Assembly: GCA_946616295.1 (NCBI GenBank)
Contig: CAMOIU010000001.1
Location: 17,748-81,747 of the forward strand
Reading direction: 5' to 3'
DNA from: an uncultured Lachnospiraceae bacterium
Lineage (GTDB): Bacteria > Bacillota > Clostridia > Lachnospirales > Lachnospiraceae
DNA length: 64,000 nucleotides
The translations under genes and the position numbers were made by a program. Of this stretch, positions 42,253 through 63,177 are shown in pieces. Below the pieces are notes generated by a model, which saw only the letters and a list, made by a program, of their open reading frames with translations, had not been told where the DNA came from and ran no database searches. Positions within the stretch are counted from its first letter, which is position 1. Every line of letters starts with the position of its first letter.

Positions 42253-43056
42253 ATGAATGACAGGTTACTGCATCGAGAAGCAAACGCAGATAATGATATT
42301 ACACTTGGGAGTATGATTATGCTCCTTTTAGTCAGATTCCATTGGCTTCTTCTTGCCGGATTGAGCTGTGGACTGGCGGTCTTTTTTATTACGTCATATC
42401 TGTTGACTGCTACTTACGAATCGCGTGTAAGTTTCTATGTATATAATTCTTCCGACAGTGCTCTCAGCACGGGAACGATTAATAATAACGATCTTCAAGC
42501 CGCAGAAAGCCTTGCGACAACTTATTCAAAAATACTGGTCAGCAATTCCGTGCTTGATGCGATTCTTGAAGACCTTGAGGATGATCGGGGAATAACAAGA
42601 AAAGACCTCAGCAGGATGACCAAGGCGGCTGTTGTAGATGATACACAGCTTCTGGAAGTGATTATCACCTCCCCTGACCCGCAGTTTGCCTGCGATGTGG
42701 CCAATTCCTTTGTCAATGTTGTTCCTACGGAAATTGTACGTATAACGAAAGCCGGAGGGGTGGAGGTCGTCGATCGCCCCGAGCTTGCGACAGAAAAATC
42801 CTCTCCGAGGACAATATTTGACACGGTGATCGGCGTCCTGATAGGAATTGTGGTTTCAGCGATCATTATCTTAGCAAGAGCGGTGTCAGACAGGACGATT
42901 TATCTGCCCGAAGATATTCAGAATCATTATTCCGTGACGATTCTGGGGCAGATTCCCAGAATAGAGTATTCCGATAAAACTAAAAGTGACTGGAGCCTGA
43001 TGAAAGGAGGAGAATTCCGGTTTGCTGATGATAAGGAAGAGACGCCCGAAACTTGA
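42253..43056 (+). CDS. Polysaccharide chain-length determinant (CpsC/YveK/Wzz-like)
   Basis: Two TM helices; TYES.VSFYV, TYSKILVSNSVL, VVDRPE...KSSP. Confidence 0.88.
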   Translation: MNDRLLHREANADNDITLGSMIMLLLVRFHWLLLAGLSCGLAVFFITSYLLTATYESRVSFYVYNSSDSALSTGTINNNDLQAAESLATTYSKILVSNSVLDAILEDLEDDRGITRKDLSRMTKAAVVDDTQLLEVIITSPDPQFACDVANSFVNVVPTEIVRITKAGGVEVVDRPELATEKSSPRTIFDTVIGVLIGIVVSAIIILARAVSDRTIYLPEDIQNHYSVTILGQIPRIEYSDKTKSDWSLMKGGEFRFADDKEETPET

Positions 43057-43801
43057 AGCGGACAATCATGCAAAGGACAATGTCCGTTTGCTGGATAACG
43101 ACACTCCGTTTGCGGTGAAAGAGGCCTATGTAAAACTGAGAACGAATCTGATGTTCTGCATGACAGCTGATAAGCAGCGTCAATGCAGGTCCTTTGCGGT
43201 CACCAGTGCTATGCCTTCGGAGGGAAAGAGCCTTTCGGCTGCCAACATCGCCATTAGTTTTGCCATGCTCGGGAAGAAGACGCTTCTTGTCGATGCAGAT
43301 ATGAGAAAACCTGCCCAGAGAGCAATCTGGAGAACGAATATTTCTAAAGGTATCTGTGATTATCTCGCCAATCTTGGACCATTAAGAACGTATAATGTAA
43401 AAACCATTCCGCTGACATTAATATTTACAGGAACAATACCGCCGAATCCGTCAGAATTGCTGGCTTCCGGAGGCATGAAGAAATTTATGGAAAAAAGCGC
43501 GGAAATCTATGACTACGTGATCATAGATACTCCGCCCATTAACACGGTTGCAGACGCGCAGATTATCTCGACATATGTGGACGGAATAGTCTTGATCGCC
43601 AGATCAGGGAGTACGACATCAGACGAGCTGAGTGCAGCTATCGAGTCGATTCAGCGGGCAGACGGAAACTTATGCGGTGTCGTGTTGAACGATATGAATA
43701 TGAAAAGCATGAGATACTCCTACCGATACAGGTACGGAGACAAGTATGGCTATAAATACGGTTACACCAGATATGGAGGGAAGAGTGAATCGGCCGAGTA
43801 A
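43022..43801 (+). CDS. BY-kinase (CpsD/CapB-type tyrosine kinase)
   Basis: EAYVKLRTNL, TSAMPSEGKS, LVDADMRKP, IIDTPP, Tyr-rich tail YSYRYRYGDKYGYKYGY. Confidence 0.93.
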   Translation: MLMIRKRRPKLEADNHAKDNVRLLDNDTPFAVKEAYVKLRTNLMFCMTADKQRQCRSFAVTSAMPSEGKSLSAANIAISFAMLGKKTLLVDADMRKPAQRAIWRTNISKGICDYLANLGPLRTYNVKTIPLTLIFTGTIPPNPSELLASGGMKKFMEKSAEIYDYVIIDTPPINTVADAQIISTYVDGIVLIARSGSTTSDELSAAIESIQRADGNLCGVVLNDMNMKSMRYSYRYRYGDKYGYKYGYTRYGGKSESAE

Positions 43802-44441
43802 TACTATCGACCTGACACTGGATTATCACGCCCATATTCTTCCCGGCTGTGACCATGGAAGCGATGGGATTGAAACATCGTTGAAGCAGATCCTCATGGC
43901 AAAAGAAGCGGGGATCAAAACTATTTGTGCGACGCCTCATTTCTATCCCCACGAGGAAGGAATCAGGTCTTTTCTTACAAGACGACAGGAGACTTTTCAG
44001 CTTCTAAAGTCACATCTGAAGCAGGGCGATCCTCAGATAAAGCTGAGTGCTGAGGTCTTGATCTGCCAGGGAATGGAACACATGGAGGGACTTCGCGATC
44101 TATGCCGTGAAGGGACACAGGAACTGCTTCTTGAACTCCCTTTTTACAGGTGGCCGGACACAGTCTGGGAGACGATTTACGCATTGAACGAGCGTGGGGA
44201 CATTCGGATTGTGATCGCTCATGCGGACCGTTATCCTGCAGCGAACATTGAACAATTGATCAGGGATGGATTTCCACTTCAGCTGAATGTTTCAGCACTC
44301 ATGAATCCATTTAGGAGGGGACGCTACATCCGCTGGATCAAAGAAGGCCATGCTGTTTTCCTGGGAAGCGATATTCATATGTTAGGCAGCGGATATCAGG
44401 AATGGATGAAGTGCAGAAGAATACTACAGAAAAGCAGATAG
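43785..44441 (+). CDS. CpsB/CapC-type PHP tyrosine phosphatase
   Basis: DYHAHILPGCDHGS, ATPHF, AHADRY, LGSDIH; GTG 43785 after GGAGGG. Confidence 0.88.
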   Translation: MNRPSNTIDLTLDYHAHILPGCDHGSDGIETSLKQILMAKEAGIKTICATPHFYPHEEGIRSFLTRRQETFQLLKSHLKQGDPQIKLSAEVLICQGMEHMEGLRDLCREGTQELLLELPFYRWPDTVWETIYALNERGDIRIVIAHADRYPAANIEQLIRDGFPLQLNVSALMNPFRRGRYIRWIKEGHAVFLGSDIHMLGSGYQEWMKCRRILQKSR

Positions 44442-45229
44442 ACAGAAGCAATGATAGTATCCCAAAGATTCCTGTGGTATCTGTCATCATGCCTGCCTAT
44501 AATTCGGAAACGGTTATTAAAGAAGCCATCGAGTCTGTGCTCGCCCAGACATTTTCTGACTGGGAGCTTCTGATCCTGGACGATCACTCTGCAGATCGAA
44601 CCGGAGAGATCGCGCGATATTATGAGGGGCAGGATACTCGGATCCATTACATCAGCAGTCAGAAGAATGTCGGCACTGCAAGGATAAGGAACCATGGTAT
44701 CAGCCTGGCACAGGGAGATTGGATTGCGCTATTGGACAGCGATGACCGATGGCACAGGGAGAAGCTGGAAAAACAGTTGGATCTGGCACAAAGGACAGAA
44801 GCATCCATAGTCTATACCTCTTATTTGCTGTTTGAAAGTGACCAGTATCAGCAGACAGCTTATCTGGTTCCCGAAACAACCGACTATGAGCAGATGCTGT
44901 TAGAGAATGTGATCGGATGTTCAACGGCTATGATCCGCCGTTCTGTCTTCGAGGAGCATAGGTTTTCCACAGAGGTGAGTCATGAAGACTACGCCCTGTG
45001 GCTGGAGCTTCTGAAGGCCGGGTTTAAGGCTTGTGGATGTAGAGAGATCCTGGTTGACTGGCGTATATCTGATCAGTCAAGATCCTATGACAAACGAAAA
45101 TCTGCCATGGATCGATGGTACATCTATCGCAGGATCGAAAAGCTGCCGCTGGGAAAATCCATCTATTCTTTTTTTTGCTATGCCAGGAATGGAGTAAAGA
45201 AATATAAGAGGCTGAAATTTGGAGGATAA
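44402..45229 (+). CDS. GT2 glycosyltransferase (TuaG-like)
   Basis: VSVIMPAYN, LDDHSAD, RN.GI..AQGDWIALLDSDD, EDYALW. Confidence 0.9.
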   Translation: MDEVQKNTTEKQIDRSNDSIPKIPVVSVIMPAYNSETVIKEAIESVLAQTFSDWELLILDDHSADRTGEIARYYEGQDTRIHYISSQKNVGTARIRNHGISLAQGDWIALLDSDDRWHREKLEKQLDLAQRTEASIVYTSYLLFESDQYQQTAYLVPETTDYEQMLLENVIGCSTAMIRRSVFEEHRFSTEVSHEDYALWLELLKAGFKACGCREILVDWRISDQSRSYDKRKSAMDRWYIYRRIEKLPLGKSIYSFFCYARNGVKKYKRLKFGG

Positions 45230-46091
45230 GAAAACGGATATCCAGAGGAAACAGCATCAGGCAGTGCTCTTTTCGATGCTGAAGGACCTGGATCGCGTAT
45301 GTAGGAAACACCATATCCATTATATGCTGTTTTCGGGGACGGCGCTCGGGGCTGTTCGGCATGGCGGATTCATTCCCTGGGACGATGATCTTGATATTGT
45401 ACTGCTTCGCAGGGAATATGAACGCTTGTTGGATTCCGCCGAAAAGGAACTGGACAGTGATAAGTACTATGTGCAGAGGGAATTCGGACCGCACTGGCCA
45501 ATGATGTTTTCCAAACTCCGTCTCAACAACACGACTTGTATAGAGAAATATCACGCTAAGGATGAAAGGATGCACCAGGGAGTGTATATCGACATTTTCC
45601 CCTGCGATAACCTTTCGGATCATGCATGCATAAGGAAAATGCAGTTTCTTGCGTCCAAGATCGTGATCGCAAAAGCACTGTATGCCAGGGGGTACGCTAC
45701 GGACAGCCTGGTTAAGAAAGGCTTCATGCAGCTATGTCGTTTAGTCCCCGGCAAGTGGTTATGGGAGTTTTGTGTTCGGAAAGAGGATTGCGGTTCCGAG
45801 ATGGTGCATACCTTTTTCGGAGGCGGGAGCAAGTACAACAAAAATGTGTTTCCACGGAAATGGTTTGAAGAAACGATAGAGATGACCTTTGAGGACGGGT
45901 CATTTCCGGTTCCTGAACACTATGATGAACTCTTGAAAAAACTGTATGGAGATTATATGGAACTTCCACCTCCTTCACAGAGGAAATGCAAGGAGCACGT
46001 AGCAATATTGGATCTGACACGCAGTTACAGGGAACATCTTGAGGAACAGAAGATAATGAACATCAACACGTATACAAGGAGTATCAGATAG
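45219..46091 (+). CDS. LicD-family phosphotransferase (second copy)
   Basis: GTALGAVRHGGFIPWDDDLDI, GVYIDIFPCD, FEDGSFPVP..YD..L..LYGDYM. Confidence 0.92.
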   Translation: MEDKKTDIQRKQHQAVLFSMLKDLDRVCRKHHIHYMLFSGTALGAVRHGGFIPWDDDLDIVLLRREYERLLDSAEKELDSDKYYVQREFGPHWPMMFSKLRLNNTTCIEKYHAKDERMHQGVYIDIFPCDNLSDHACIRKMQFLASKIVIAKALYARGYATDSLVKKGFMQLCRLVPGKWLWEFCVRKEDCGSEMVHTFFGGGSKYNKNVFPRKWFEETIEMTFEDGSFPVPEHYDELLKKLYGDYMELPPPSQRKCKEHVAILDLTRSYREHLEEQKIMNINTYTRSIR

Positions 46092-46137: not shown

Positions 46138-46647
46138 ATGGAACAGACATCCAACAGGCAGACTGATATTCAGAAATGGGCCATTGCAGGAATCGTACTT
46201 GTCGCGGCAATCGCTGTTTTCATACTGTCGAGGGGACAGAGCACAGCTGCTCCGGAACCGGAGAATAAAAAAACAACACTGGCAGACGCAGGCGGGGTGA
46301 TCGAGACGCCTGTTGGACAACTGACATTTCCTGAGGAATGGGCCGATTCCGTACATGTGGAAGAAACACAGGGAGAGGCATATTCCGCAGAAATCTACGC
46401 CTATTCTGACGATGAGGATGTTCTTCTGTTCAGGCTTCTCATCGGTGGAGAAGGGAACGGCTACCTGCTCGGATATGTACCTAATGAGAAGGGTGACAGA
46501 GAGTCTGTCTGGCTTGATATTAGCGCGATTGAAGACAACGAATCCCGGAGTGCAGAAGAGTCACAGCGACTCAATACAATACAGGGATGCGTGAATGACC
46601 TGATCGAACAGATCAGGGAAATGGAAGGCTTTTCGGAAAGTGAGTAA
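46138..46647 (+). CDS. Hypothetical membrane-anchored acidic protein
   Basis: A single N-terminal TM helix; GGGAG RBS. Confidence 0.7.
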   Translation: MEQTSNRQTDIQKWAIAGIVLVAAIAVFILSRGQSTAAPEPENKKTTLADAGGVIETPVGQLTFPEEWADSVHVEETQGEAYSAEIYAYSDDEDVLLFRLLIGGEGNGYLLGYVPNEKGDRESVWLDISAIEDNESRSAEESQRLNTIQGCVNDLIEQIREMEGFSESE

Positions 46648-46653
46648 AAAGGC

Positions 46654-47190
46654 ATGTCCAGTCTGATACGACGAAAGCTAGGTGCCCTGCTGTATTATTC
46701 TATCGGAATACATATGCCGCCTTCCTGGAGCGGGGTGCATATTGGTCAGACCGCTTTCAGGGGCTTATGCGGAAAGCTGATGCTCGCAGACTGCGGAAGA
46801 AACGTGAACATCGAAAAAGGAGCCATATTCTCTCCTAAGGCCACTTTGGGCGATGCTTCGGGAATAGGGATCAATGCCAAGATCTATGGCGAGTGTCATA
46901 TAGGGAACAAAGTCATGATGGGGAATGATGTGACCATTATCACCAGGAACCATAAGATCGACCGCACGGATATTCCCATGATGGAGCAGGGGTTCGAAGA
47001 GGAGAGACCCGTCTATATCGGGGATGATGTCTGGATCGGTGACAGAGTGATCATTCTGTCTGGAGTCCATATCGGAAATGGGTCTGTAATTGGCGCAGGC
47101 TCCGTAGTGACAACGGATATTCCGGATTATTCTGTGGCGGTCGGGGTTCCTGCGAAAGTCATTCGCAGCAGGAAAGAGCCGCAGTATTGA
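46654..47190 (+). CDS. Hexapeptide-repeat O-acetyltransferase
   Basis: IGDDVWIGDRVIILSGVHIGNGSVIGAGSVV...VGVPAKVI. Confidence 0.9.
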   Translation: MSSLIRRKLGALLYYSIGIHMPPSWSGVHIGQTAFRGLCGKLMLADCGRNVNIEKGAIFSPKATLGDASGIGINAKIYGECHIGNKVMMGNDVTIITRNHKIDRTDIPMMEQGFEEERPVYIGDDVWIGDRVIILSGVHIGNGSVIGAGSVVTTDIPDYSVAVGVPAKVIRSRKEPQY

Positions 47191-47223: not shown

Positions 47224-47904
47224 TTGATTGCATATATAGATCATCATATGCTCACATTCCTGCTCGGGACAGCGGCAGTTCTGACTTTTTTATGGCTGAT
47301 GCTTTTAAGGAACAGGCTGCGGATACAGTGGTGGACGGCGTTGATACTGTCCATCCTGCATGTCCTATATGGCGTTTTCTGTGTCAAGGTATTTGCCATA
47401 GTGGAAGCAGGCTTTGATATGAGTATAGCAGGGGCTATGAGCCTTTTTGGCGGTGTCTTCTTCATGCCGATCGCATATTGGCTTGGCGCAAAACTGTTTA
47501 ACCGCAGCTATAAAGAAGTGTTTGACATCTTTACGATCCCTTTGGTGTTTACCCTGATGCTGGCAAGAATTAATTGTCTGCACGCGGGCTGCTGCTATGG
47601 GATGCCTATTCCCGGTGGAAATGGACTCCGGTGGCCAACCAGAGAAGCAGAGTTACTGTTTTATGCAGTCTTTCTTTTCTTTGTTGGGAGAAGGGTATGG
47701 AACAAAGAAATGCGAGGGACAGCCTTTCCGGTCTATATGGCCTCCTATGGACTGTTCCGCATGATCACGGAGACCTTCCGTTATAAAGAGACAAACAGCC
47801 TTCTGCATTTGAGCCACCTATGGGCATTCCTTTCGTTTTCGATCGGTCTTAGCATCTACTATGAAATGATAAGAAGGGACAGAGTAACTCCTCAATCAGT
47901 ATAA
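47224..47904 (+). CDS. Lgt-like (prolipoprotein diacylglyceryl transferase family) membrane protein, divergent
   Basis: MSLFGG, LARINCLHAGCCYG, WPTRE.E, YGLFRMITETFR; about 7 TM segments. Confidence 0.7.
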   Translation: MIAYIDHHMLTFLLGTAAVLTFLWLMLLRNRLRIQWWTALILSILHVLYGVFCVKVFAIVEAGFDMSIAGAMSLFGGVFFMPIAYWLGAKLFNRSYKEVFDIFTIPLVFTLMLARINCLHAGCCYGMPIPGGNGLRWPTREAELLFYAVFLFFVGRRVWNKEMRGTAFPVYMASYGLFRMITETFRYKETNSLLHLSHLWAFLSFSIGLSIYYEMIRRDRVTPQSV

Positions 47905-47929: not shown

Positions 47930-50900
47930 ATGATTAAGCAGATTGTAAAGCGTTGGATTGCAATAATGCTGGCTGTAGTCGTGGCACTCGGTGTTATGCC
48001 TGCCATGGAACTGACAGTTTATGCTGCTACACTAAACATCGGAATAGAAGGCCTTTCTGCGTCTTATGACAAAGGTACATGGGCAATTGAAGGGACTACG
48101 ATTACAGGAAGTGTGACAACTGAAGAAGACAGCGGTTGTACTGGTACGACGTATACGCCTGTTACCGGCACTCTTACATTTACTAATACTGGTTCCACAT
48201 CTGGCATTCTGACTTATCAACTAACACAATCCGGCAAGGGCTCTATTGTAGATAATGGAAAGGGCAGCATCACTTTGGGTGCAGCTGGAACAACGACGAT
48301 CAGCATTACATCGGCGAAAGAATCGGACACAACTTCAGTTGAGATTTCTCACATTCGTTTCACACCGGTACAGAATATCGCTGTTACTTTTGTGCCGGGA
48401 GAAAACGGAAGTTATTCAGTTGATGGAACTGCCGTAACTGAGGAAACAGTCATAACCAAACTAAACAGCGAGTTGTTTGCTCTTTCAGCGACCCCTGCTT
48501 CGGGCTATAGCTTTATGGCCTGGTACGATGCGACAAATGAGCGATTCCTGTCACAGACCGGAACGACGTCTCTGGTGTTTACAGAACCGATTACGGTTAC
48601 TCCCAAATTTATTACGGCAGGGGTCCCTGTGTTTGAAACTGGCGGCCAACTCTTTACAGATCTTAATGAAAGTATTTCCTATGCTCAGAATAACCATCAG
48701 GATAAGGTGACCCTGGTTGCTGATGGAAGTCTTCCGGCGGGAGACTATACGATTCCCAGCGGAATCACACTGCTCATTCCTTTTGATGAGGCGCATACAC
48801 TATATAAAGACTCGCCTGTAGTTGTATACAATAGTCACGATATTCCGACCCCGTACAAGACACTGACAATGGAGGAGGGGGCTGCTATTACCATTGCCTC
48901 AGGTGGAGCAATCAGCCTCGGAAGCAAACTCAGTTCCAAAGGACAGTTGGGCGGGTGGAATGGAACACCGACAGGACCGGACGGAAGGATTAACATGAAA
49001 TCCGGCAGTTCGATCAATATACAGAGCGGCGGTAATCTGTATGCTTGGGGGTACATTTATGGCTCTGGTTCTGTGACAGCGCAGAGCGGCGCAACGGTCC
49101 ATGAAGCTTTCCAGATCAAGGACTGGAGAGGAGGCACTGCTACATCTAATGTGTATGAATATGCCTTTATTCTGAATCAGTATTATGTTCAGAATATCGA
49201 AGTACCTCTTACGATGTATGCCGGTGCTTCGGAGAAACTGTACTCGGCGGTTAATGCGGGCGGTTCCGCACACACTATGGGCGCCACCTTCATCGGTTCC
49301 TCCGGCATGTTCAATCTTTCCAGCGGATATTTGGTTAAGGATTATATCGAAAGTGAAGACAGGTTGAAGGTTACATGCTGCGGCGATGTCTCTGTTTCAC
49401 CTATGACCATGACGGGTCTTCCTCTCATCGGCAGCATAAGCACAGATAACTATATCCTTCCAATCACCAGTAATATCACAATTGACATACAGTCAGGAAC
49501 GACAACAATCAACCAAGACATCTCCCTTCTTCCCGGCGTTGAGGCGAAGGTTGGAGAGAACGCAAGTTTTGTAGTCGGTTCTGGCAAGAGTGTTTATGTC
49601 TATGACAATGACGATTGGGGTAATTTCACTGGCAGTGCTAAGTTATATGTCATCGGTTATTCTGTTGCAAACGGAATAAACGCCAAACGCACAGCTGCCA
49701 GTCTGAAAGACGCAAAGATCGATGTCAATGGCACTGTGAACGTCTTAGGAAATATGTATACCTCTGCCCACGGTTCGGATATTCTGAGCGGTGGGAAAAG
49801 CGGCGTGGTCAAGGTCAGCGTAGCTCCCGGGTCATCAGATGTCACGATTTATGAAATGGAAAATAACTCTACCAAGAGATCTGTGACCTTTACACCGGCC
49901 TGGCTGCACAACGGGGAAGGAAGACCCCAGGAAGCCGAAGAGTATACAAAAACAGCAGGTGCGGATAAAGGCAGCGTATTCTTCTACTGCTCACCGCTGG
50001 ATATGTGGCTGAAGAATGGCGACGTGTATCGGGTGACCTTTGACGCGAACGCCCCGGAGAATACGCCAATAGAAGGTGAAACCGCTCAACTCGTATTTGA
50101 GGTTGATAAAGAATCATATAAAGCCGCAGCAGATATAGATGCTCTGAAGCAGCCCCTTACAGCCAATGGCTATGTGATCGAAGGGAAAAGATTCGTCAGT
50201 TGGAATACAAAAGCTGATGGTTCCGGAACTTCTTATCAGGACAGTGAGCCTGCCTTCTTTGCCAAGGATACGACTCTTTACGCACAGTGGGAAGATGCAT
50301 CTAATCAGACTTTCACTGTAACATGGAAGAACTGGGACGGCACGGAGCTTGAGACGGATACAGAGGTTCTTGCCGGATCGATTCCCGCCTATGATGGTGA
50401 GAATCCTGAAAAGGCTGCAGATCAGCAGTACACCTATTCCTTCGCGGGATGGTACTCCAGCGCAGATGAAGAATTGGAGCCGGAGAACAGGCCGCTGTAT
50501 ACTTCTGAGGCCATGCCTGCTGTGACCGGAAATGTCACGTTTACAGCCGCATTCAACAGCACAGTTAACAAATATACTGTGACATGGAAGAACTGGGATG
50601 ATACTGTCCTTGAGACAGATATGAACGTAGAATACGGCATGAAGCCTGAGTATAATGGTCAAACGCCGGTCAGAGAAGCAACACCTGAGTATAACTACGC
50701 TTTTGAAGGCTGGACACCGTCAGTTGCGGATGTTACTGGAGATATTACTTACACAGCGATGTTTACAGAGACACCTCGCACGTACACGGTGACCTGGAAG
50801 AATGAAGACGGCACGGTACTTGAGACAGATGAGGGTGTAAACTATGGCGCTACACCTTCTTATGACGGCGAGACACCTTCTAAGGAGGCAACAGCTCAGT

Positions 50901-53900
50901 ATAGTTACACTTTCAATGGATGGACTCCGGAAGTGTCTGCTGTGACAGGCGATGCAGTGTATACGGCATCGTTTACTGAGTCTGCCCGAACCTACACGGT
51001 GACGTGGAAGAATGAGGACGGGACAGTCCTGGAGACGGATTCCAATGTTGCGTACGGGGTGACGCCGGAATACAACAGTGCAGCTCCTACGAAAGCAGCG
51101 GATGCCCAGTATACCTATACATTTGACAAGTGGTCTCCGGAAATCACGGAGGTAACTGGAGATGTCACGTATACGGCTGCGTACAGCAGAACTGTCAACA
51201 CCTATACAGTAACCTGGAAGAACGAGGACGGAACTGTCCTCGAAACCGACGAAAATGTCGCATATGGCGCAACACCGACTTATGACGGAGAAGCACCCAC
51301 CAAGGCGGCGGATGCCCAGTACACCTATACATTTGACAAGTGGTCTCCGGAAATCACGGAGGTAACTGGCAATGCCACTTATACAGCCACGTACAGCAGA
51401 ACTGTCAATACCTATACGGTGACGTGGAAGAATGAGGATGGAACTGTCCTCGAAACCGACGAAAATGTCGCATACGGCGTAACACCGACTTATGACGGAG
51501 AAACACCCGCCAAGGCGGCGGATGCCCAGTATACTTATCTGTTTGCAGGCTGGACACCGGAAGTGGCAGCTGTGACAGGAGACACTGTCTATACCGCTCA
51601 GTTTAATACCACGGTCCAGACATATACGGTGACGTGGAAGAACGAGGATGGAACGGTTCTGGAGACAGACACATCCGCGTATGGAACGATGCCGGAATAT
51701 AACGGGGGGACTCCTGAAAAGGCCGGCAACGCGCAGTTCACCTATACCTTCAAAGGCTGGTCCCCGGAAATCTCCGAAGTGACCGGGGACAGCACCTACA
51801 CTGCAGTCTTTGAGGAGACGACCAGGACCTACACTGTGACCTGGAAGGATGAGGATGGCACGGTGCTTGACACGGATCAGGCTGCCTATGGCTCCAGACC
51901 GTCGTATACCGGGCAGACGCCTTCGAAGGCCGGAAATGCGCAGTACACATATACCTTCAGCGGGTGGTCCCCTGAGATTGCAGAAGTTACCGGGGATGTC
52001 ACCTACACAGCCACCTACAGCAGTGCGGTCAACAGATATACCGTGACGTGGAAAGACGAAGACGGAAGAGTTCTTGAAAAGGACGAGAACGTCGAGTACG
52101 GTGCGACGCCTGTCTTTAACGGAAAGACGCCTGTCAAGGAGGGAACGGAGGAATTCAGTTATACCTTCGCAGGATGGAACCCGGAGATTTCCGAGGTCCG
52201 CGGCAACGTGACGTATACGGCGCGGTATACCGAGGAGACCAATACCTACACCGTCACATGGAACAACTATAACGGAGATCAGTTGGAGAAGGACGAGAAC
52301 GTTCCTTTTGGCACGAGACCGAATTATAACGGGGCGACTCCGTCCAAACCCGCAACAGCCCAGTTTACCTACACCTTTGCAGGCTGGTCGCCGAACATCA
52401 CAGACGTGACAGGAAATGTAACTTATACAGCGGTATTTACTGAGACAGTCAACCGCTATACGATTACATTCGCAGATGAAGAAGGAAAGGTTCTGCAGGA
52501 AGAAGAGTATGACTATGGTGAGCGGCCGGTCTATAACGGCACCGCTCAGGAGAAGACGTCGACAGCCCAGTACACATATATCTTTGCAGGCTGGTACTCC
52601 TCCGCAGATGCCGGCGTGGATCCGAACAAGAGACCGGTCTATGATTCAGAAGGCATTCCGGAGGTTACAGGAAGCGTAACTTATACGCCTGCCTTTATCG
52701 CAGAGGTCAACAAATACACGATCCGCTTCATCAATGATGACGATTCGGTTCTTCAGACAGGGCAGATTGCCTACGGGGAGATGCCTTCCTATAACGGAAG
52801 TGAACCGGAGAAGGCATTGGATGCTCAGTACACTTACACATTTGCCGGATGGAAGCCTGTACTCGCAGCGGTGACCGGGAATGCGGACTACAAGGCGACG
52901 TATACAAAGACTGTCAACACGTATAAAGTGACGTGGCAGAATTCGGACGGCACAGTCCTTGAGACCGACGAGAACGTCGAATACGGTTCCACACCGTCTT
53001 ATGACGGCGAAACGCCCGTGAAGAAAGGAGACGAGCAGTTCACCTACATTTTCACCGGCTGGACTCCGGAGGTGACAGCCGTCACAGGGAATGTTATCTA
53101 TACGGCAATGTACAGATCTTCCGTCAACACCTATACGGTAATCTGGAAGAATTCGGACGGCACAGTCCTTGAGAAGGATGAAAATGTCGAGTACGGGACG
53201 ATTCCGACTTACGACGGCGAGACGCCTGCCAAGCAAGGAGATTCCCAGTATACCTATACCTTTGATGGATGGGATTCTGAGATCACATCCGTGACAGGAG
53301 ACGTAGAATATACAGCGGTCTACACTTCTGAAGTGAATGAGTACGCGATAGTGTGGAAGAATTATGACGGAACGATTCTTCTGACAACTTATGCTGCGTA
53401 TGGTTCTACGCCGGAGTACAAAGGCATTGTGGAGCGCAGCACAACTGAAAACGAGGAAGGCAGTTATACCTTCAAGGGGTGGACACCGGAAGTGACCGAA
53501 GTAACAGGTGATCGGGAATACACGGCAGATTTCACCTTTACAGGTATCAGAACCCTGGAAGAAGGCAGACAGTACTTCGTGGATGACAGGTTGCAGAAAT
53601 CCGGATGGACACAGGTCGGAGACAACATCTATTACTTTGACTATGAGACCGGCTATGCGGCGACAGGCATTGCGAGTACGGTGAAAGAGAAGGAGGATGA
53701 CAGAGAGCCCGGACTCTATGTATTCAATGCAAACGGAGTATTCCGCAATGGCCTGAACGGAGTGTACACGGATGAGGGCTCCGAATCTCAGGATACTTAT
53801 TATGTCCTGGAAGGCAGGGTACAGGAAAATGCCGGACTTGTAAGAGTTATTCTGGATGACGGCGCGATCAACTACTATTACTTCGGAGAAGATAACAAGG

Positions 53901-55330
53901 CGGTCAAAGATGGCAGTTATAAGGTAGACAAAAACAATGATCTTCCACTGCCGGCGTATCGTTATCTGTTTGATGAGCACGGTGTGATCGTACATGACGC
54001 TGACACAACGAAGAACGGAATCCACAGTCTGACACAGGACGACGGAAATCTGTATTACATGATCGATGGCGTCAATGTGGGTGAAGGCCTCCTTTTCATC
54101 GATGGCTCCTACTATTACGCAAAGACTTCCAGCGGCATGATCGTTCGGAACAGTAAGTATTGGATCACAAAGACCAATGGCCTGCCGATCGATCCGGCGG
54201 AATACAGCTTCGACAGTGAAGGCAGACTGGTTTTGAACGGATTCGTGATCAGTGGCGGCTACACCTATTATTATAAAGACGGTGTGCGCACGAAGGGATT
54301 CTGCAAGATCGGAGATGATTATTATCTCTTTAATGCAGGAAACGGCAGGATGTACCATGATGCCACAATGTGGGTCGGAGATAATGAATATGGCATTGTA
54401 GGAGGTATGTACTACTTCGGCAGCGACGGAAGGATGGTCCTTCCCGACCTCGAAAACGGGATCCGTGCAGTTGTCTCCGAGAACGGAAAGCTGTACTTTA
54501 CGATCGACGGTGCCCGCATGGTGAACGGTCTCTATGAATTGGATGGAGAATACTATTACGCCAAGAACAGCGGGAAACTTGCAGTCGGAGAGACTGTCTG
54601 GGTGAGCAACAAGAATGGCTTAATTCCTGAAAAAGGGAACTGGTATGCGTTCGACACAAACGGGAAACTGATCAAGACCGGGTTCGTGGAAGGCGGCGGC
54701 AGTACTTACTACTATAAGGATTGTGCGCTCGCGCTTGGCTTCACCCTTATCGATGGAAACTATTACTACTTCAATGCCGGAAGCGGAAAGATGTACAAAG
54801 ACACCACACTGTGGGTGGGCGACAACAGCTATGGCGTAGAAGCCGGTATGTACAGGTTCGGTGCAGACGGACGAATGGTGATACCGGATCTTGAAAACGG
54901 GTCGAAACTGATTCAGTCGGAGGGCGGAAAGCTCTACTTTACCATCGACGGTGCAAGAATGAGCAATGGCCTCTACGAACTGGACGGCGAGTATTACTAC
55001 GCAAATAGCAGTGGAGTACTTGCGGTCGGCGAGACGGCCTGGGTGAGTAATAAGAATGGATTGATTCCTGAAAAGGGCAACTGGTACGCTTTCGATGATT
55101 CCGGGAAACTGATCAAGACCGGCTTTGTGGAAGGCGGCGGCAGCATCTATTATTACGAGGACTGCGTACTGGCTCTAGGCCTGACGAAGGTAGGAGATGA
55201 TTACTACTTCTTTAATGCAGGCAGCGGAAAGATGTACCGGGATATGGATCTATGGGTCGGAGCGAATGATTATGGCTTCACAGGAGGCATGTATCACTTT
55301 GACGCAGACGGAAAAATGGTGATTTCCTGA
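47930..55330 (+). CDS. Giant secreted surface protein (2466 aa) with 15 tandem ~70-aa repeats and C-terminal cell-wall-binding-like repeats
   Basis: Sec signal peptide (...LTVYA/A), one InlB-B/Flg_new-like unit (VTFDAN...FVSWNTKADGSG...LYAQW), TVTWKNEDG repeats, YYF/GKM repeats. Confidence 0.85.
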   Translation: MIKQIVKRWIAIMLAVVVALGVMPAMELTVYAATLNIGIEGLSASYDKGTWAIEGTTITGSVTTEEDSGCTGTTYTPVTGTLTFTNTGSTSGILTYQLTQSGKGSIVDNGKGSITLGAAGTTTISITSAKESDTTSVEISHIRFTPVQNIAVTFVPGENGSYSVDGTAVTEETVITKLNSELFALSATPASGYSFMAWYDATNERFLSQTGTTSLVFTEPITVTPKFITAGVPVFETGGQLFTDLNESISYAQNNHQDKVTLVADGSLPAGDYTIPSGITLLIPFDEAHTLYKDSPVVVYNSHDIPTPYKTLTMEEGAAITIASGGAISLGSKLSSKGQLGGWNGTPTGPDGRINMKSGSSINIQSGGNLYAWGYIYGSGSVTAQSGATVHEAFQIKDWRGGTATSNVYEYAFILNQYYVQNIEVPLTMYAGASEKLYSAVNAGGSAHTMGATFIGSSGMFNLSSGYLVKDYIESEDRLKVTCCGDVSVSPMTMTGLPLIGSISTDNYILPITSNITIDIQSGTTTINQDISLLPGVEAKVGENASFVVGSGKSVYVYDNDDWGNFTGSAKLYVIGYSVANGINAKRTAASLKDAKIDVNGTVNVLGNMYTSAHGSDILSGGKSGVVKVSVAPGSSDVTIYEMENNSTKRSVTFTPAWLHNGEGRPQEAEEYTKTAGADKGSVFFYCSPLDMWLKNGDVYRVTFDANAPENTPIEGETAQLVFEVDKESYKAAADIDALKQPLTANGYVIEGKRFVSWNTKADGSGTSYQDSEPAFFAKDTTLYAQWEDASNQTFTVTWKNWDGTELETDTEVLAGSIPAYDGENPEKAADQQYTYSFAGWYSSADEELEPENRPLYTSEAMPAVTGNVTFTAAFNSTVNKYTVTWKNWDDTVLETDMNVEYGMKPEYNGQTPVREATPEYNYAFEGWTPSVADVTGDITYTAMFTETPRTYTVTWKNEDGTVLETDEGVNYGATPSYDGETPSKEATAQYSYTFNGWTPEVSAVTGDAVYTASFTESARTYTVTWKNEDGTVLETDSNVAYGVTPEYNSAAPTKAADAQYTYTFDKWSPEITEVTGDVTYTAAYSRTVNTYTVTWKNEDGTVLETDENVAYGATPTYDGEAPTKAADAQYTYTFDKWSPEITEVTGNATYTATYSRTVNTYTVTWKNEDGTVLETDENVAYGVTPTYDGETPAKAADAQYTYLFAGWTPEVAAVTGDTVYTAQFNTTVQTYTVTWKNEDGTVLETDTSAYGTMPEYNGGTPEKAGNAQFTYTFKGWSPEISEVTGDSTYTAVFEETTRTYTVTWKDEDGTVLDTDQAAYGSRPSYTGQTPSKAGNAQYTYTFSGWSPEIAEVTGDVTYTATYSSAVNRYTVTWKDEDGRVLEKDENVEYGATPVFNGKTPVKEGTEEFSYTFAGWNPEISEVRGNVTYTARYTEETNTYTVTWNNYNGDQLEKDENVPFGTRPNYNGATPSKPATAQFTYTFAGWSPNITDVTGNVTYTAVFTETVNRYTITFADEEGKVLQEEEYDYGERPVYNGTAQEKTSTAQYTYIFAGWYSSADAGVDPNKRPVYDSEGIPEVTGSVTYTPAFIAEVNKYTIRFINDDDSVLQTGQIAYGEMPSYNGSEPEKALDAQYTYTFAGWKPVLAAVTGNADYKATYTKTVNTYKVTWQNSDGTVLETDENVEYGSTPSYDGETPVKKGDEQFTYIFTGWTPEVTAVTGNVIYTAMYRSSVNTYTVIWKNSDGTVLEKDENVEYGTIPTYDGETPAKQGDSQYTYTFDGWDSEITSVTGDVEYTAVYTSEVNEYAIVWKNYDGTILLTTYAAYGSTPEYKGIVERSTTENEEGSYTFKGWTPEVTEVTGDREYTADFTFTGIRTLEEGRQYFVDDRLQKSGWTQVGDNIYYFDYETGYAATGIASTVKEKEDDREPGLYVFNANGVFRNGLNGVYTDEGSESQDTYYVLEGRVQENAGLVRVILDDGAINYYYFGEDNKAVKDGSYKVDKNNDLPLPAYRYLFDEHGVIVHDADTTKNGIHSLTQDDGNLYYMIDGVNVGEGLLFIDGSYYYAKTSSGMIVRNSKYWITKTNGLPIDPAEYSFDSEGRLVLNGFVISGGYTYYYKDGVRTKGFCKIGDDYYLFNAGNGRMYHDATMWVGDNEYGIVGGMYYFGSDGRMVLPDLENGIRAVVSENGKLYFTIDGARMVNGLYELDGEYYYAKNSGKLAVGETVWVSNKNGLIPEKGNWYAFDTNGKLIKTGFVEGGGSTYYYKDCALALGFTLIDGNYYYFNAGSGKMYKDTTLWVGDNSYGVEAGMYRFGADGRMVIPDLENGSKLIQSEGGKLYFTIDGARMSNGLYELDGEYYYANSSGVLAVGETAWVSNKNGLIPEKGNWYAFDDSGKLIKTGFVEGGGSIYYYEDCVLALGLTKVGDDYYFFNAGSGKMYRDMDLWVGANDYGFTGGMYHFDADGKMVIS
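50309..53540 (+). repeat. Intragenic tandem repeats, about 207-210 bp x 15
   Basis: Consensus YTVTWKNEDGTVLETD.NV.YG.TP.Y.GETP.K.A.AQYTYTF.GW.PE...VTG..TYTA. Confidence 0.9.
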
Positions 55331-55461
55331 CGAAAAGCCCAAAGCAGCAATGTCAGCAGATCGGAGTGTGCGCCAGCCCCGTCCCGGGGCCGGCGCACAG
55401 CGGTATGGAAAAACGGTCCTCCCGCAAGAGCAGGGTTATGTTGAAAGGAAAGAGTAAGGCA

Positions 55462-58400
55462 ATGAAAAAGAAGTATTCTTTGAAAAAACTGTCAATACTG
55501 CTGGCTGCTTGTCTGCTGTTAGGGAGCTGCCCGACAGGAACATACGCTGCCGAGGCTTCGGTGGAAGAACCTGCAATTGAACAGGAGCAGGAAAAAGAGG
55601 AGGAGCCCTCAGAGGCTGACAGTCAGATTCCTGCTTCTGAAGAACCATCGCAGGCTCCTGACAACGGGCAAGACGCTGACGAGCAGTTATCGGAAGGAGG
55701 CTCTCCCGAATCAGGATTATCCGGTCAGGAGACAGATGATGGATCGGAACAGGAGAAGGAGCCCGTATCTGAACAGGGAGCAGAACAAGTTACTGAGCCT
55801 TCTGCCACGGAAGGAGACGGAGAAAATGAAGAGCTGACAGAATCTGATGAGGAGATCACAGAAGAAGATTCCGAGGAAGAAGAGACAGAGACCGGAAGTG
55901 TTCCCTCAGATCCGATCTCATCATACAGTGATTTCATTAAGTCTCTGACAGAACTGGAAACATATGCCCGGGAATATGCCGATGAGCATGCCGGAGAGGA
56001 TCCGAATGCCCTGGTGATCAATTTTATTCGTTGTGGCGTGGAAAAGTACACCTCTGGGACCTGGACTACATTCTGTGGAGAGGAAAAGACTGCTTTTACC
56101 ACATTTGTAGCCGAGAAGGATGTGGAAAATGCCACAGAGGCGTCCAGACTGAGAAAACTTGAAACTTTTACCCTTCCGAATGGTGATAGGGTGGAATTTG
56201 CGCACATGTTCGGATGCATGGACATGGCATATCACACCGGGAATCAGAACACAGCGGATCTGGGAAGCTGGGTAGGTGATCTCTGCGATCTGGTGCAGCT
56301 TGCACACAATGGAGGCGTGTCTGGTACAGTAGAACAGATGGCGGAGGAGATCCGCACAAACAACAGTAAGTACTTTCTCTATGATGATCCTCACTCGCAT
56401 TCTTTTGGGAGACAGGATCTCTATGCGGATCTCGACGCCTATTATATTCTCCGAAACTTATCGGGATCAGGATCGATCAGCGCGGTAATGAAGAAATATT
56501 ATACAGGGAATCTTACCGACAAGAACCGGGCTGTTTATTTTATTGATCACCGCCTCGGAGGAGCTTCTACCAGGGCTGAGATCCGCCTGAAAGTGTACGA
56601 GATCTATCAGGGCAATGAAGGGGCACATACCTTGGAAGGGACTTATCTTCCGGATGGTGTCAATGCCGATGTGCGACAGGCCTGCTGTTATGCATTTGCG
56701 GATTATCTGTACGAAACCGCGAAGGGGAGTCTGGAGAACAGTTATTATACACTGATCTCCACAGAGAAATCGAACCCGGCGCCTGGTGTGACACAGGAGA
56801 TCAAAACAGCTGTCACTCAGGACAATAAGCAGATCGTCTATTATATCGCCAAGGCGGATATCACGCGCAGCGATATCAGTGTTCATGCAAATTACAATAA
56901 CAATGACGGAACTAGCTGGGGCATGTCCCGTGTTTCCGACCAGATGAAAGCTGCTGAGAAAAGGCATAGTAATCCGGAGGACGAAGAACACTATACACCC
57001 AATTATAGCGCAGTCATCGGTGTCAATGCCGATTTCTACAACATGAGTACGGGCGTGCCTTCCGGTCCTCTGGTAATGGAGGGGATCCAGTATCATGACA
57101 TCGGTACGGGGAATTTCTTTGGAATCAAGAAGGACGGTACACCGATCATCGGCGGCAAGGCTGAGTGGGACGCCAATAAAAACGATCTGGAAGAGGCCGT
57201 CGGCGCTTCCGTATGGCTTGTCCGCAACGGGGAGATCGCTGTAACAGCGACATCTAATTATTACAATGATCGCGCTTCCCGCACTGCTGTCGGTATAACT
57301 TATGACGGGCGTGTCGTACTTATGGTTCTGGACGGCAGGCAGGAACCTTATTCCTGCGGCGGCAGTGCCATTGAGATAGCACAGATCATGCAGGATGCGG
57401 GATGTGTTTCCGCAGTCAATCTGGATGGCGGCGGGTCTTCTACATTTGCCGGTAAAGCAGAAGGATCGGATGAGATCAAAGTCATCAACAGACCTTCAGA
57501 TGGATATGAGAGATCTGTAAGTTCATCACTTATGGTAGTCTCTGCGGCAAAACCGTCTAATGAATTCGATCATGCGGTGGTTTCTGCTGATTATGATTAT
57601 TTGACTGTAGGATCCGAGCTTGAGATCCAGGCAACCGGTGTTACAGTGACCGGGGGCGCAACGGACCTTCCCGAGGATACTTCCCTGCAGAGTACCGATG
57701 AAAGCATCGGCACGATATCGGAGGACAGTGTCTTCACAGCCAAAGCCCCGGGCGATGTCCAGATACGGGTCATTTCCGGGGATGGGGAAGTCCTCGGCTC
57801 CAAGACCATGCATGTGGTAGATCCGACCGAGCTGCATTTCTCCAAGGAGAGCATCAATGCTGTCTACGGCGAGCCGGTCGCGCTTCCGCTGGAAGCCCTT
57901 TATAAAGGGAATCCGGTGAAGATCAATCCGAACGATGTGACCTTCGGATACCTCAAGGTCACGCTGACTTCCATCGGAAATGTGGAAGGAAGTGCAGTCA
58001 ATTCTACAAGGACAGAATTGGTCTTCGATTATCCTGAGGCAGGTACGATCGACGGATTTGAGTTTACACCTGCAGACGGAGAGGATAGGGTTCGCACACT
58101 TACTGTTGGAGCGGTCCTCACATCCAAGCTGAATGAATTCCAGCAGACGGTTGCCACAGAATATCAGTCAGCATATCAGGAAGCGATTGCGAATGGCTTC
58201 ACGGCCTCAGATGCTGCACTGCAGGCGGAAGCGAGGGCAGTGAACAAGGCACTGGATACGGCAGCACGTCTTTCTATCTACATGTACAGTGCTGATGAAG
58301 CTACATTTGATTTTGAGGACGCGACGGGAGAAAACGGGATCATTGCCTGGAAGAGAGATATTTCCAATTCCACCTATAATGAATCCGAACAGACATACAG

Positions 58401-61416: not shown

Positions 61417-62208
61417 ATGAAAGTAGAAACACTGGTAGCCACCATTGATCAGGAAGACTTTTCTCTGGTGTCGAAAATGAATATTCAAACAGACGCGCTT
61501 ATTGCCAACCAGTGCAGGCGCACATCTACAGAATCCTTCAGTATGAACGGAAAGGCGGTCACATTTCTGAACACGCAGGACAGAGGCGTGGGAAAGAACA
61601 GGAATCTGCTGCTGCAGAATGCGTCTTCAGATATTTGTGTCCTCGCAGATGATGATATGCGCTTTATAGACGGCTATGAAAAAACGGTAATTAATGCTTT
61701 TGAAGAATGCCCGCAGGCGGATCTTCTTGTATTTAATCTGATTGAAAAGATTCCGCGCCGTTTTATAAACCGGAAGATCAAAAGAGTCGGCTGGACTGAA
61801 TATGCCAGATATGGTGCAGCACGAATTGCCTTCAGAAGAAGAAAGATCATTGAGGCCCAAATTCATTTCAGTCTTCTGTTTGGTGGTGGCGCAAAGTTTG
61901 GTTCCGGAGAAGATACCATCTTCCTAAAAGAGTGCATGGAAAGGGGGCTTAAGATATATTCAATGCCCTATGCTCTCGCAGAGATTGACCAGACAGCGGA
62001 ATCGACATGGTTCTCGGGGTATGATCAAAAACTGTTTCACGACAAAGGGGCACTTTACCGATGTCTTCATCCTGTTATGTGGCCTGTGTTTGCACTTCGA
62101 TATCTGCTTCGCAAACGGGATAAGATCAGAGGAAACATGACGCTTCTTCAGGCGGCAATGTACATGTGGCAGGGGAGCGTGGACTATTCTTCGCTTACGG
62201 AGGCATAA
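61417..62208 (+). CDS. GT2-like glycosyltransferase
   Basis: RGVGKNRN, VLADDD, FGGGAKFGSGED motifs. Confidence 0.82.
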   Translation: MKVETLVATIDQEDFSLVSKMNIQTDALIANQCRRTSTESFSMNGKAVTFLNTQDRGVGKNRNLLLQNASSDICVLADDDMRFIDGYEKTVINAFEECPQADLLVFNLIEKIPRRFINRKIKRVGWTEYARYGAARIAFRRRKIIEAQIHFSLLFGGGAKFGSGEDTIFLKECMERGLKIYSMPYALAEIDQTAESTWFSGYDQKLFHDKGALYRCLHPVMWPVFALRYLLRKRDKIRGNMTLLQAAMYMWQGSVDYSSLTEA

Positions 62209-62211
62209 GAA

Positions 62212-63177
62212 GTGAGATTCAGTATTGTTATGCCGGTCTATAATTCGGCTCAGTACCTGGATGCCGGCATAGCGTCTGTTCTATGTCAGGAGTACCCCGA
62301 TTGGGAGTTACTGATCATCGATGATGGGTCGATGGATCACAGTCTGGAAATAATTAATCAATATGCGGCCAAAGACGAGAGACTCCGAGTATTCCACCAA
62401 GAGAATAGTGGTCAGTTTTATGCAAGACAGAAGGGAATCGAAAACGCAGAAGGTGAATATATACTGTTTCTCGACAGTGACGATGAGTTAAAGAGAAACT
62501 GTCTTTCCAGACTATGCGAGGAAATAGGCACAGAAGAGCCGGATATTGTTGTCTTTGTAGGAGAGGTCTTTGATCGTGAACGGAACACAGTGAGGCCTCT
62601 TGGCTCTCTGGGCGAGAAAAAGGAGTGGCTTTCGCTATGGTCCGTAAGGGAGAAACTCCTTACGTCAGATCAACTGAATTCTCTATGCTTTAAAGCTTTT
62701 AAACGAGAATTATTTGAAGGAGATCCAGCTGATTATACGGCCTTTCGGGGGACTCATTACGGTGAAGACAAAGCGCGTCTGATGTATCCGATGACTAAAG
62801 CTGATAAAATCCTGTATCTTCCGGACGTGCTTTACAGATACAACTATCGTCCGGACAGTACTATGCATGGATATGATTTGAATCAGGCTGACAAAGTGCT
62901 GGCGGTACAATTGTTTTCTTTACTGAAGAAATATATGTACGTGTGGGGGATGGAGGGAACCCTTTGCAGCGAGCGTTTTGAAGCATATGTGATAAGAACA
63001 GTATTGTCGGCATATTACGGATTGCGCAGAAAATGCACTAACAGGAGGCAACGACAGGATCTACGTCAATATCCCTGGGAAGAAGCTGCACAGATTAAAA
63101 GATTCCGTCACCTCATGAACAAAGAACTCAGCATGAGAGATCGCATCAGGCTTTTTTTGTTTTATTTGAGGTTTTAA
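62212..63177 (+). CDS. GT2 glycosyltransferase
   Basis: FSIVMPVYN, IDDGSMD, HQENSG...AR..G, YILFLDSDD, GED, LYRY. Confidence 0.9.
   Translation: MRFSIVMPVYNSAQYLDAGIASVLCQEYPDWELLIIDDGSMDHSLEIINQYAAKDERLRVFHQENSGQFYARQKGIENAEGEYILFLDSDDELKRNCLSRLCEEIGTEEPDIVVFVGEVFDRERNTVRPLGSLGEKKEWLSLWSVREKLLTSDQLNSLCFKAFKRELFEGDPADYTAFRGTHYGEDKARLMYPMTKADKILYLPDVLYRYNYRPDSTMHGYDLNQADKVLAVQLFSLLKKYMYVWGMEGTLCSERFEAYVIRTVLSAYYGLRRKCTNRRQRQDLRQYPWEEAAQIKRFRHLMNKELSMRDRIRLFLFYLRF

Follow-up and report, generated by a model that had tools for sequence, protein, structure and literature searches.

Organization of the Locus

The window, by which we mean the whole 64,000-nucleotide stretch of DNA that was analyzed, carries a polysaccharide locus that includes two very large genes, and all of the features described here lie on its forward strand. 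Genes for Wzz-like, CpsD-like (P-loop), and CpsB-like proteins together with a GT2 glycosyltransferase gene (positions 42253 to 45229) form a polysaccharide assembly set, and the next gene encodes a LicD-family phosphotransferase (45219 to 46091). The presence of LicD fits a wall polymer decorated with phosphocholine or another phosphodiester, putatively bound by the repeats of the giant proteins encoded downstream. Two smaller genes follow, one for a 169-aa protein with a single N-terminal membrane helix (46138 to 46647) and one for a hexapeptide-repeat acetyltransferase (46654 to 47190). The 169-aa protein had no match in Pfam or NCBIfam; its extracellular part is acidic, and it was found in 15 of the 47 related loci described below, recurring upstream of the gene that concerns us here.

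That gene, at 47224 to 47904, encodes a short, "headless" paralogue of the prolipoprotein diacylglyceryl transferase Lgt, with 226 aa and seven transmembrane (TM) helices. Directly downstream lies the gene for giant B, a protein of 2466 aa (47930 to 55330) that we propose as the partner or substrate of the short Lgt; the codon of Cys70, its candidate acceptor residue, is at 48137 to 48139. Giant B is followed by giant A (1994 aa; 55366 to 61350), whose likely start is a Met at about 55438. Downstream of the giants are two further GT2 glycosyltransferase genes (61417 to 63177). The first-pass annotation had placed the short Lgt inside a glycan locus, and this setting was confirmed, with Wzz, CpsD-like, CpsB, GT2, LicD, and acetyltransferase genes upstream and the two GT2 genes downstream.

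A Short Lgt Encoded in Addition to a Full-Length Lgt

The short Lgt reading frame opens with a TTG start codon, 9 nt to the 5′ side of which lies a GGAGG Shine–Dalgarno sequence. Its translation contains MLARINCLHAGCCYG, RWPTREAE, and YGLFRMITETFR; both the 226-aa frame and every motif quoted in the first-pass annotation were thus found as described. The protein matched the Pfam LGT family (PF01790) with 53.8 bits at a gathering cut-off of 24.9 bits, the match covering profile positions 50–237 of 240. It fell below the cut-offs of both NCBIfam Lgt equivalog models, scoring 19.6 vs. 118.9 bits for TIGR00544 and 23.9 vs. 334 bits for NF000778. We found more than 300 homologues of ∼225 aa with 50–63% identity, and 677 cluster representatives matched the family at E ≤ 1e-3; on these grounds, the short Lgt is a real, conserved gene. 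Database pipelines name proteins of the short family "prolipoprotein diacylglyceryl transferase family protein," and no NCBIfam model claims the family. A literature search returned no paper dealing with the short family or with a pairing of Lgt genes and giant proteins, and a PDB sequence search with the short Lgt as the query gave no match. Parts of the window were found in three DNA gut-metagenome runs; no RNA run was found.

The same genome carries a full-length Lgt on another contig (C12), which scores 215 bits and belongs to the N/E type defined below. The short Lgt is therefore a true paralogue, as the first-pass annotation had proposed in calling it a short, divergent one, and it is not the only Lgt of its genome.

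Fold and Conserved Residues

To place the short Lgt structurally, we compared an AlphaFold2 model (115 family members; pLDDT 96, pTM 0.91, seven TM helices) with the PDB. The best Foldseek match was E. coli Lgt (PDB ID code 5AZB), with a probability of 1.0. VIA-align superposed residues 2–220 of the model on residues 12–286 of the 5AZB chain (Z 13.9, rmsd 3.7, 212 residues), and the next match had a Z of only 6.8. Profile–profile comparison of the short family with full-length Lgts likewise gave a probability of 99.3% (E 1e-20). Judged by the predicted model, the short Lgt is thus a seven-TM protein of the Lgt fold, the same fold as that of E. coli Lgt. The two differ in size, 291 aa in E. coli vs. 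226 aa here, and the short protein lacks arm-1 and the head domain and has a shortened arm-2.

Conservation within the short family takes in residues that E. coli Lgt uses for its lipid substrate. Two residues, C118 and Y175, do not vary among the 115 members, whose identity falls as low as 25%, and D101, R115, G122, C123, C124, G126, G176, R179, E183, and R186 are each conserved in at least 90% of them. R115 corresponds to R143 of the E. coli enzyme and R179 to R239, and altogether, the short Lgt has equivalents of E. coli D129, R143, G154, Y235, R239, E243, and R246. In E. coli Lgt, R143 and R239 bind the phosphate of phosphatidylglycerol (PG), with E243 and R246 forming an adjacent network (PMC4728403). 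In the signature motif, N146 of E. coli is replaced by C118, E151 is replaced by C123, and G154 is retained as G126. This conservation pattern, read from the alignment, argues for a working active site.

Outside this core, much of the canonical enzyme is missing. The short family has no N-terminal arm-1, its arm-2 is ∼12 aa shorter, and all that is left of the head domain is a short hairpin (residues 122–138). There is no conserved Tyr or Gly at the position of the TM1 Y.YG motif (Y26 in E. coli), a motif whose YG is present in both classes of full-length Lgt, and the GAR.YY block of TM2 is absent. The HGGL-type motif has become sLFG, with Phe where E. coli has H103, and HPTxxYE (HPSQLYE in E. 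coli) has become RWP(T/I)RE.E, residues 136–143 of the short Lgt (RWPTRE.E). According to bioRxiv 10.1101/2025.03.27.645668, a Y26A variant of E. coli Lgt is nonfunctional, the H103 site holds H, Y, or W (Y or W in Firmicutes), and specificity for the protein substrate is set by the arms, the head, and H103. The picture that these comparisons suggest is of a conserved lipid-binding catalytic core from which the substrate-handling parts have been removed. The short family is thus distinguished by having lost arm-1 and the TM1 Tyr, along with part of arm-2 and the head domain.

The same losses could be taken to mean that the short Lgt has no catalytic role and serves the giants only as a lipid-binding or docking partner, an export or assembly factor, or a membrane tether, much as inactive signal-peptidase homologues act as chaperones in some pilus systems. 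The missing arms and head and the missing TM1 Tyr, essential in E. coli, would suit such a role. We nevertheless regard it as improbable, since conservation of at least 90% down to 25% identity in the PG-binding Arg residues, the Cys triad with its Gly, and Y..R...E..R is hard to explain without catalysis.

A Cysteine Signature Shared with Full-Length Lgts

The first-pass annotation had read GCCYG in place of N..E..G as a mark of nonstandard chemistry. This did not hold up. Among the 28 best Pfam-LGT loci of a 40-genome Bacillota sample, all full-length Lgts, 12 carry xRIGCxLNGCCYG (Cys type), and the other 16 carry GRWGNFxNxEAxG (N/E type). The Cys-type Lgt is the sole LGT match in three closed, single-contig genomes (G266, G213, and G329) and again in G338 and G203 (98% complete). 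These Cys-type enzymes are otherwise ordinary, with Y.YG in TM1, (H/Y)GG, and RHPTQ(L/I)YE. Because Cys at the N146 and E151 positions is thus a common natural form in presumably housekeeping Lgts, it provides no evidence of new chemistry; by sequence comparison, these replacements appear to reflect natural variation rather than loss. We had considered the Cys triad as a metal site or as the seat of a covalent intermediate and dropped the idea, as sole housekeeping Lgts carry the same triad.

The Cys-type full-length Lgts of G266, G213, G329, and G338 have a Cys triad identical to that of the short Lgt. Unlike the short family, they are 245–300 aa long, score 180–250 bits against Pfam LGT, and keep the arms and head. 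We found no mention of this full-length class in the literature. The class is large, with full-length loci in other Bacillota genomes (L059, L061, L062, L067, L070, L072, L090–L101, and L102–L106). Three genomes have two full-length Lgt genes each, namely G196 (L068 and L072), G312 (L106 and L107), and G445 (L102 and L108), the G196 pair consisting of one N/E-type and one Cys-type gene. A separate Pfam LGT match of 155 bits (G157:C1:2691229-2691957) lies inside a 933-aa open frame and may be an Lgt fusion.

A quick maximum-likelihood IQ-TREE phylogeny (81 rows, unrooted) separated the short family from the full-length Lgts. The short family forms one clade (SH-aLRT 99), attached by a long stem to a grade of Cys-type Lgts, its closest full-length relatives in this unrooted tree, and the N/E type forms one clade (100) nested in that same grade.

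Kinship of this sort raises the prospect that the short Lgt is simply an ordinary, trimmed Lgt for lipobox lipoproteins, a horizontally acquired back-up or a copy used under particular conditions. It shares its signature with sole, presumably housekeeping Bacillota Lgts and joins their grade in the tree, and M. smegmatis offers a precedent in its two lgt homologues, which are suspected to overlap in function (bioRxiv 10.1101/2025.01.07.631728). Such a role is, however, very unlikely given the scores of the short Lgt against the two equivalog models and its lack of the arms, the head, the TM1 Tyr, and the HGGL-type residue. Moreover, the gene is rare and patchy (with the genome G000 set aside, it occurs in 3 of 150 family genomes and in 0 of 398 class-sample genomes), always has a full-length Lgt alongside it, and is locked to one neighboring gene.

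Association with Giant Genes

We scanned species-representative genomes and obtained 47 loci with a short Lgt. Nearly all come from gut or rumen metagenome-assembled genomes of Oscillospiraceae, Lachnospiraceae, and Ruminococcaceae, with a few from isolates, and three are short contigs binned to Bacteroides, Parabacteroides, and Oxalobacter. Cultivable carriers include Flintibacter porci, Fusibacillus kribbianus, and Brotocaccenecus cirricatena. Wherever the downstream sequence extends far enough, a giant ORF of 1000–3200 aa nearly always lies directly 3′ of the short Lgt, whose stop codon often overlaps the start of the giant ORF. Searched by tblastn with the window proteins, 37 of the 47 loci contained the N-terminal module (N-module) of giant B and 38 its core. 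Giant A, which carries a NAGPA domain, was present next to the pair in 24 of the 47, in some cases before the short Lgt and in others after giant B; LicD was present in 25 and the hexapeptide acetyltransferase in 23. In about one-quarter of the loci, the acetyltransferase gene is the immediate upstream neighbor of the short Lgt. The wider setting was always a glycan locus of the Wzx/Wzy type.

The pairing extends to the level of whole genomes. Within the family, the short Lgt occurs in 4 of 151 genomes sampled at one per genus (G000, G045, G125, and G147), and a full giant-B N-module (E < 1e-20) was detected in exactly those four. In a class-level sample of 399 genomes, both the short Lgt and the N-module occur only in G000, and G000 is also the sole carrier of the short type in a phylum sample of 401 genomes. 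Across ∼549 sampled genomes, the two therefore share the same four genomes with no exception in either direction, a co-occurrence to which we attach no P value because related genomes are not independent. A full-length Lgt is also present in all four carriers.

Gene order shows some exceptions. No giant adjoins the short Lgt in loci L017 and L022; in L022, its neighbors are an amidase and a two-component system. In L017 (1573-3486), the ORF next to the short Lgt has 191 aa and no family match, and beyond it a 637-aa sulfatase-family (LtaS-like) protein takes the place of a giant. LtaS-type enzymes generally use PG, and if this one does too, two PG-using membrane enzymes would be neighbors at this locus. 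The short Lgt of G045 is intact but comes after another giant, of 2849 aa, and the giant with the N-module lies 40 kb away.

Two cluster representatives are single gene calls with the short Lgt fused to a signal peptide-like helix and then to a giant of the Flg_new type. The giant part of one of them, P0264, is 39% identical to residues 234–793 of giant B. At the sequence level, fusions of this type support a direct functional link between the short Lgt and giant B. P0264, a distant member, keeps the Lgt motifs but lacks the N-terminal Cys module in its giant part, which means that Cys70 cannot serve as acceptor throughout the family. That some short Lgts pair with giants devoid of the Cys module, and that fused gene calls put a giant directly behind an Lgt-like membrane domain, would also suit the purely noncatalytic partnership considered above. 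A search for longer fused forms yielded only two odd gene calls, one an acetyltransferase fusion and the other an ArdcN/YodL fusion. The first of these, P0274 (406 aa), comprises the hexapeptide acetyltransferase and the short Lgt in one gene call and is either a real fusion or a frameshift artifact; it mirrors the frequent adjacency of the two genes.

The glycan setting fits a different acceptor as well, and the first-pass annotation had named the polysaccharide as one candidate, along with glycerophosphate as one group that might be moved. The short Lgt would then act on the glycopolymer of the locus or on a lipid-linked precursor, supplying a diacylglycerol anchor or another PG-based modification. 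We judge this unlikely, although the gene always sits in Wzx/Wzy-type loci with LicD, GT2 or GT4 genes, acetyltransferases, and a flippase, often has the hexapeptide acetyltransferase as its direct upstream neighbor (once fused to it in a gene call), and in L017 has as a neighbor an LtaS-like protein of another PG-using enzyme family. Its most constant and tightest neighbor is a giant protein and no glycan gene, and LicD and the acetyltransferase are each found in only about half of the loci. Furthermore, Lgt chemistry is an S-alkylation by a thiolate, and sugars have no thiol. The transfer of glycerophosphate is another reaction, for which enzymes of the unrelated LtaS/OpgB fold are responsible. 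None of our evidence favors a polysaccharide acceptor or glycerophosphate transfer. Glycan loci are the constant setting of the pair, and gene context by itself is therefore unable to tell a protein acceptor from a glycan one. The first-pass annotation had also named the giant proteins as possible acceptors, a good guess in view of the tight coupling of the short Lgt to the first giant gene.

The Giant Proteins and a Conserved Cysteine

Giant B begins with a Sec-type signal peptide (residues 1–32) that ends ...TVYA|AT and contains no Cys. A carbohydrate-binding module (CBM)-like β-sandwich (residues ∼33–154) follows, then a Flg_new_2 repeat, a conserved core (residues ∼234–790), and many repeats, those at the C terminus being of the choline-binding type. 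The core gave only a weak Atlas lead, β-helix-like, and a PDB sequence search with it returned no match. Giant A combines a NAGPA phosphodiester-glycosidase domain with choline-binding-type repeats, and its signal peptide reads LLGSC, then P, then YAAEA. The earlier observation that neither giant has a clean lipobox thus stands: giant B has VYA|AT without a Cys, and in giant A, LLGSC is followed by P. The N terminus of giant A (window positions 55438 to 55560) contains this lipobox-like LLGSC. Giant-A orthologues encoded before the short Lgt at other loci have signal peptides with a plain AxA site and no LLGSC; the window's copy of giant A alone might be a standard lipoprotein.

The N termini of giant-B orthologues align well. 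Each consists of an AxA-type signal peptide and a module of ∼120 aa with one Cys, within the motif GS..S..G.C....Y..(S/G)TLT.(T/K)N, and a search of these N termini for a lipobox found none. This Cys, Cys70 in the window, is the only one conserved in all giant-B orthologues, which are otherwise poor in Cys (2 in the 2219 aa of the L008 protein and 7 in the 2466 aa of the window protein). Many orthologues (L006, L011, L030, L035–L037, and L040) carry tandem C-x10-C-x2-C modules, ∼40 aa apart, at about residues 690–1000; the window's giant B has none. A model of the N-module (pLDDT 92) is a β-sandwich in which Cys70 sits in a hairpin turn between strands 65–69 and 72–76. Fold searches gave only generic CBM-like β-sandwich matches, the best wide match being VesC (Z 10.0), and Foldseek found nothing for the module at E ≤ 0.001. 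As modeled, the CBM-like fold does not hint at what the Cys might do.

Proposed Function

Taken together, a short Lgt and a giant protein that has a conserved Cys and no lipobox suggest a putative private lipid-anchoring system in gut Clostridia. Our favored, though tentative, reading is that the short Lgt is a substrate-dedicated Lgt-type transferase for the neighboring giant wall-binding protein, with Cys70 as the likeliest acceptor in this clade. We infer catalysis itself, as well as the lipid donor and the acceptor. Like Lgt, the short enzyme would bind PG through R115 and R179 and would then pass the diacylglyceryl group to a thiol. The acceptor thiol would be that of Cys70 in the hairpin of the giant-B N-module, in place of a lipobox Cys beside the signal peptide. 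Giant B would in this way be tied to the membrane by its N terminus, and its C-terminal repeats would hold the choline-type wall polymer that this locus produces.

Worked out in full, the proposal is of a minimal, dedicated Lgt that places diacylglycerol on an internal Cys of a folded extracellular domain with neither a lipobox nor a signal peptidase II step; in that specific form, we consider it possible but doubtful. The canonical target of Lgt is a Cys that adjoins a signal peptide embedded in the membrane. Cys70 lies ∼37 residues past the predicted signal peptidase I site, within a folded domain, and would be an unprecedented acceptor. Several observations count against a dedicated Lgt: the TM1 Tyr that is essential in E. 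coli is not conserved in the short family, P0264 has no Cys module, the N-module giant of G045 is distant from the short Lgt, and L017 and L022 have no adjoining giant.

Discussion

The usual view of Lgt is that of one universal enzyme, specific for the lipobox, that is also a target for antibiotics. Second Lgt-family genes are known from Actinobacteria, in the form of Lgt1 and Lgt2 of Streptomyces and of the M. smegmatis pair, in which MSMEG_5408 stands beside MSMEG_3222. As with the short Lgt, these second genes have an unclear or distinct role. The actinobacterial second Lgts are full length and thought to be partly redundant, whereas the short Lgt is truncated, and we know of no report that ties any of them to a single neighboring substrate gene. 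Similar in genomic logic, by analogy, are the dedicated paralogues of other envelope enzymes, such as the pilin- and Isd-specific sortases, SipW for TasA, and SecA2/SecY2 for giant serine-rich adhesins, where an accessory paralogue is encoded beside one large surface-protein client; these differ from the short Lgt in enzyme family and in chemistry. To our knowledge, no substrate-dedicated Lgt has been described, and our literature search found none. Canonical Lgt acts on prolipoproteins with the lipobox [LVI][ASTVI][GAS]C; the short Lgt also departs from canonical Lgt in that the protein encoded beside the short gene has no lipobox.

Apart from the function of the short Lgt, the sequence comparison affects mechanistic models built on the E. 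coli enzyme, as many presumed housekeeping Lgts of Bacillota have Cys at the "essential" N146 and at E151. If the dedicated-transferase reading is true, the short Lgt would be the first "private" Lgt, and its product would be the first S-diacylglyceryl modification outside a lipobox, which would amount to a new way for bacteria to lipidate proteins. A minimal Lgt tied to one client would show how little protein the catalytic core needs, and it would offer a natural test of how the arms and head shape the choice of substrate. Such a system might also reveal lipid-anchored proteins that are invisible to lipoprotein predictors. It would help to explain how Clostridia that are abundant in gut and rumen mount very large proteins on a choline-type wall polymer.
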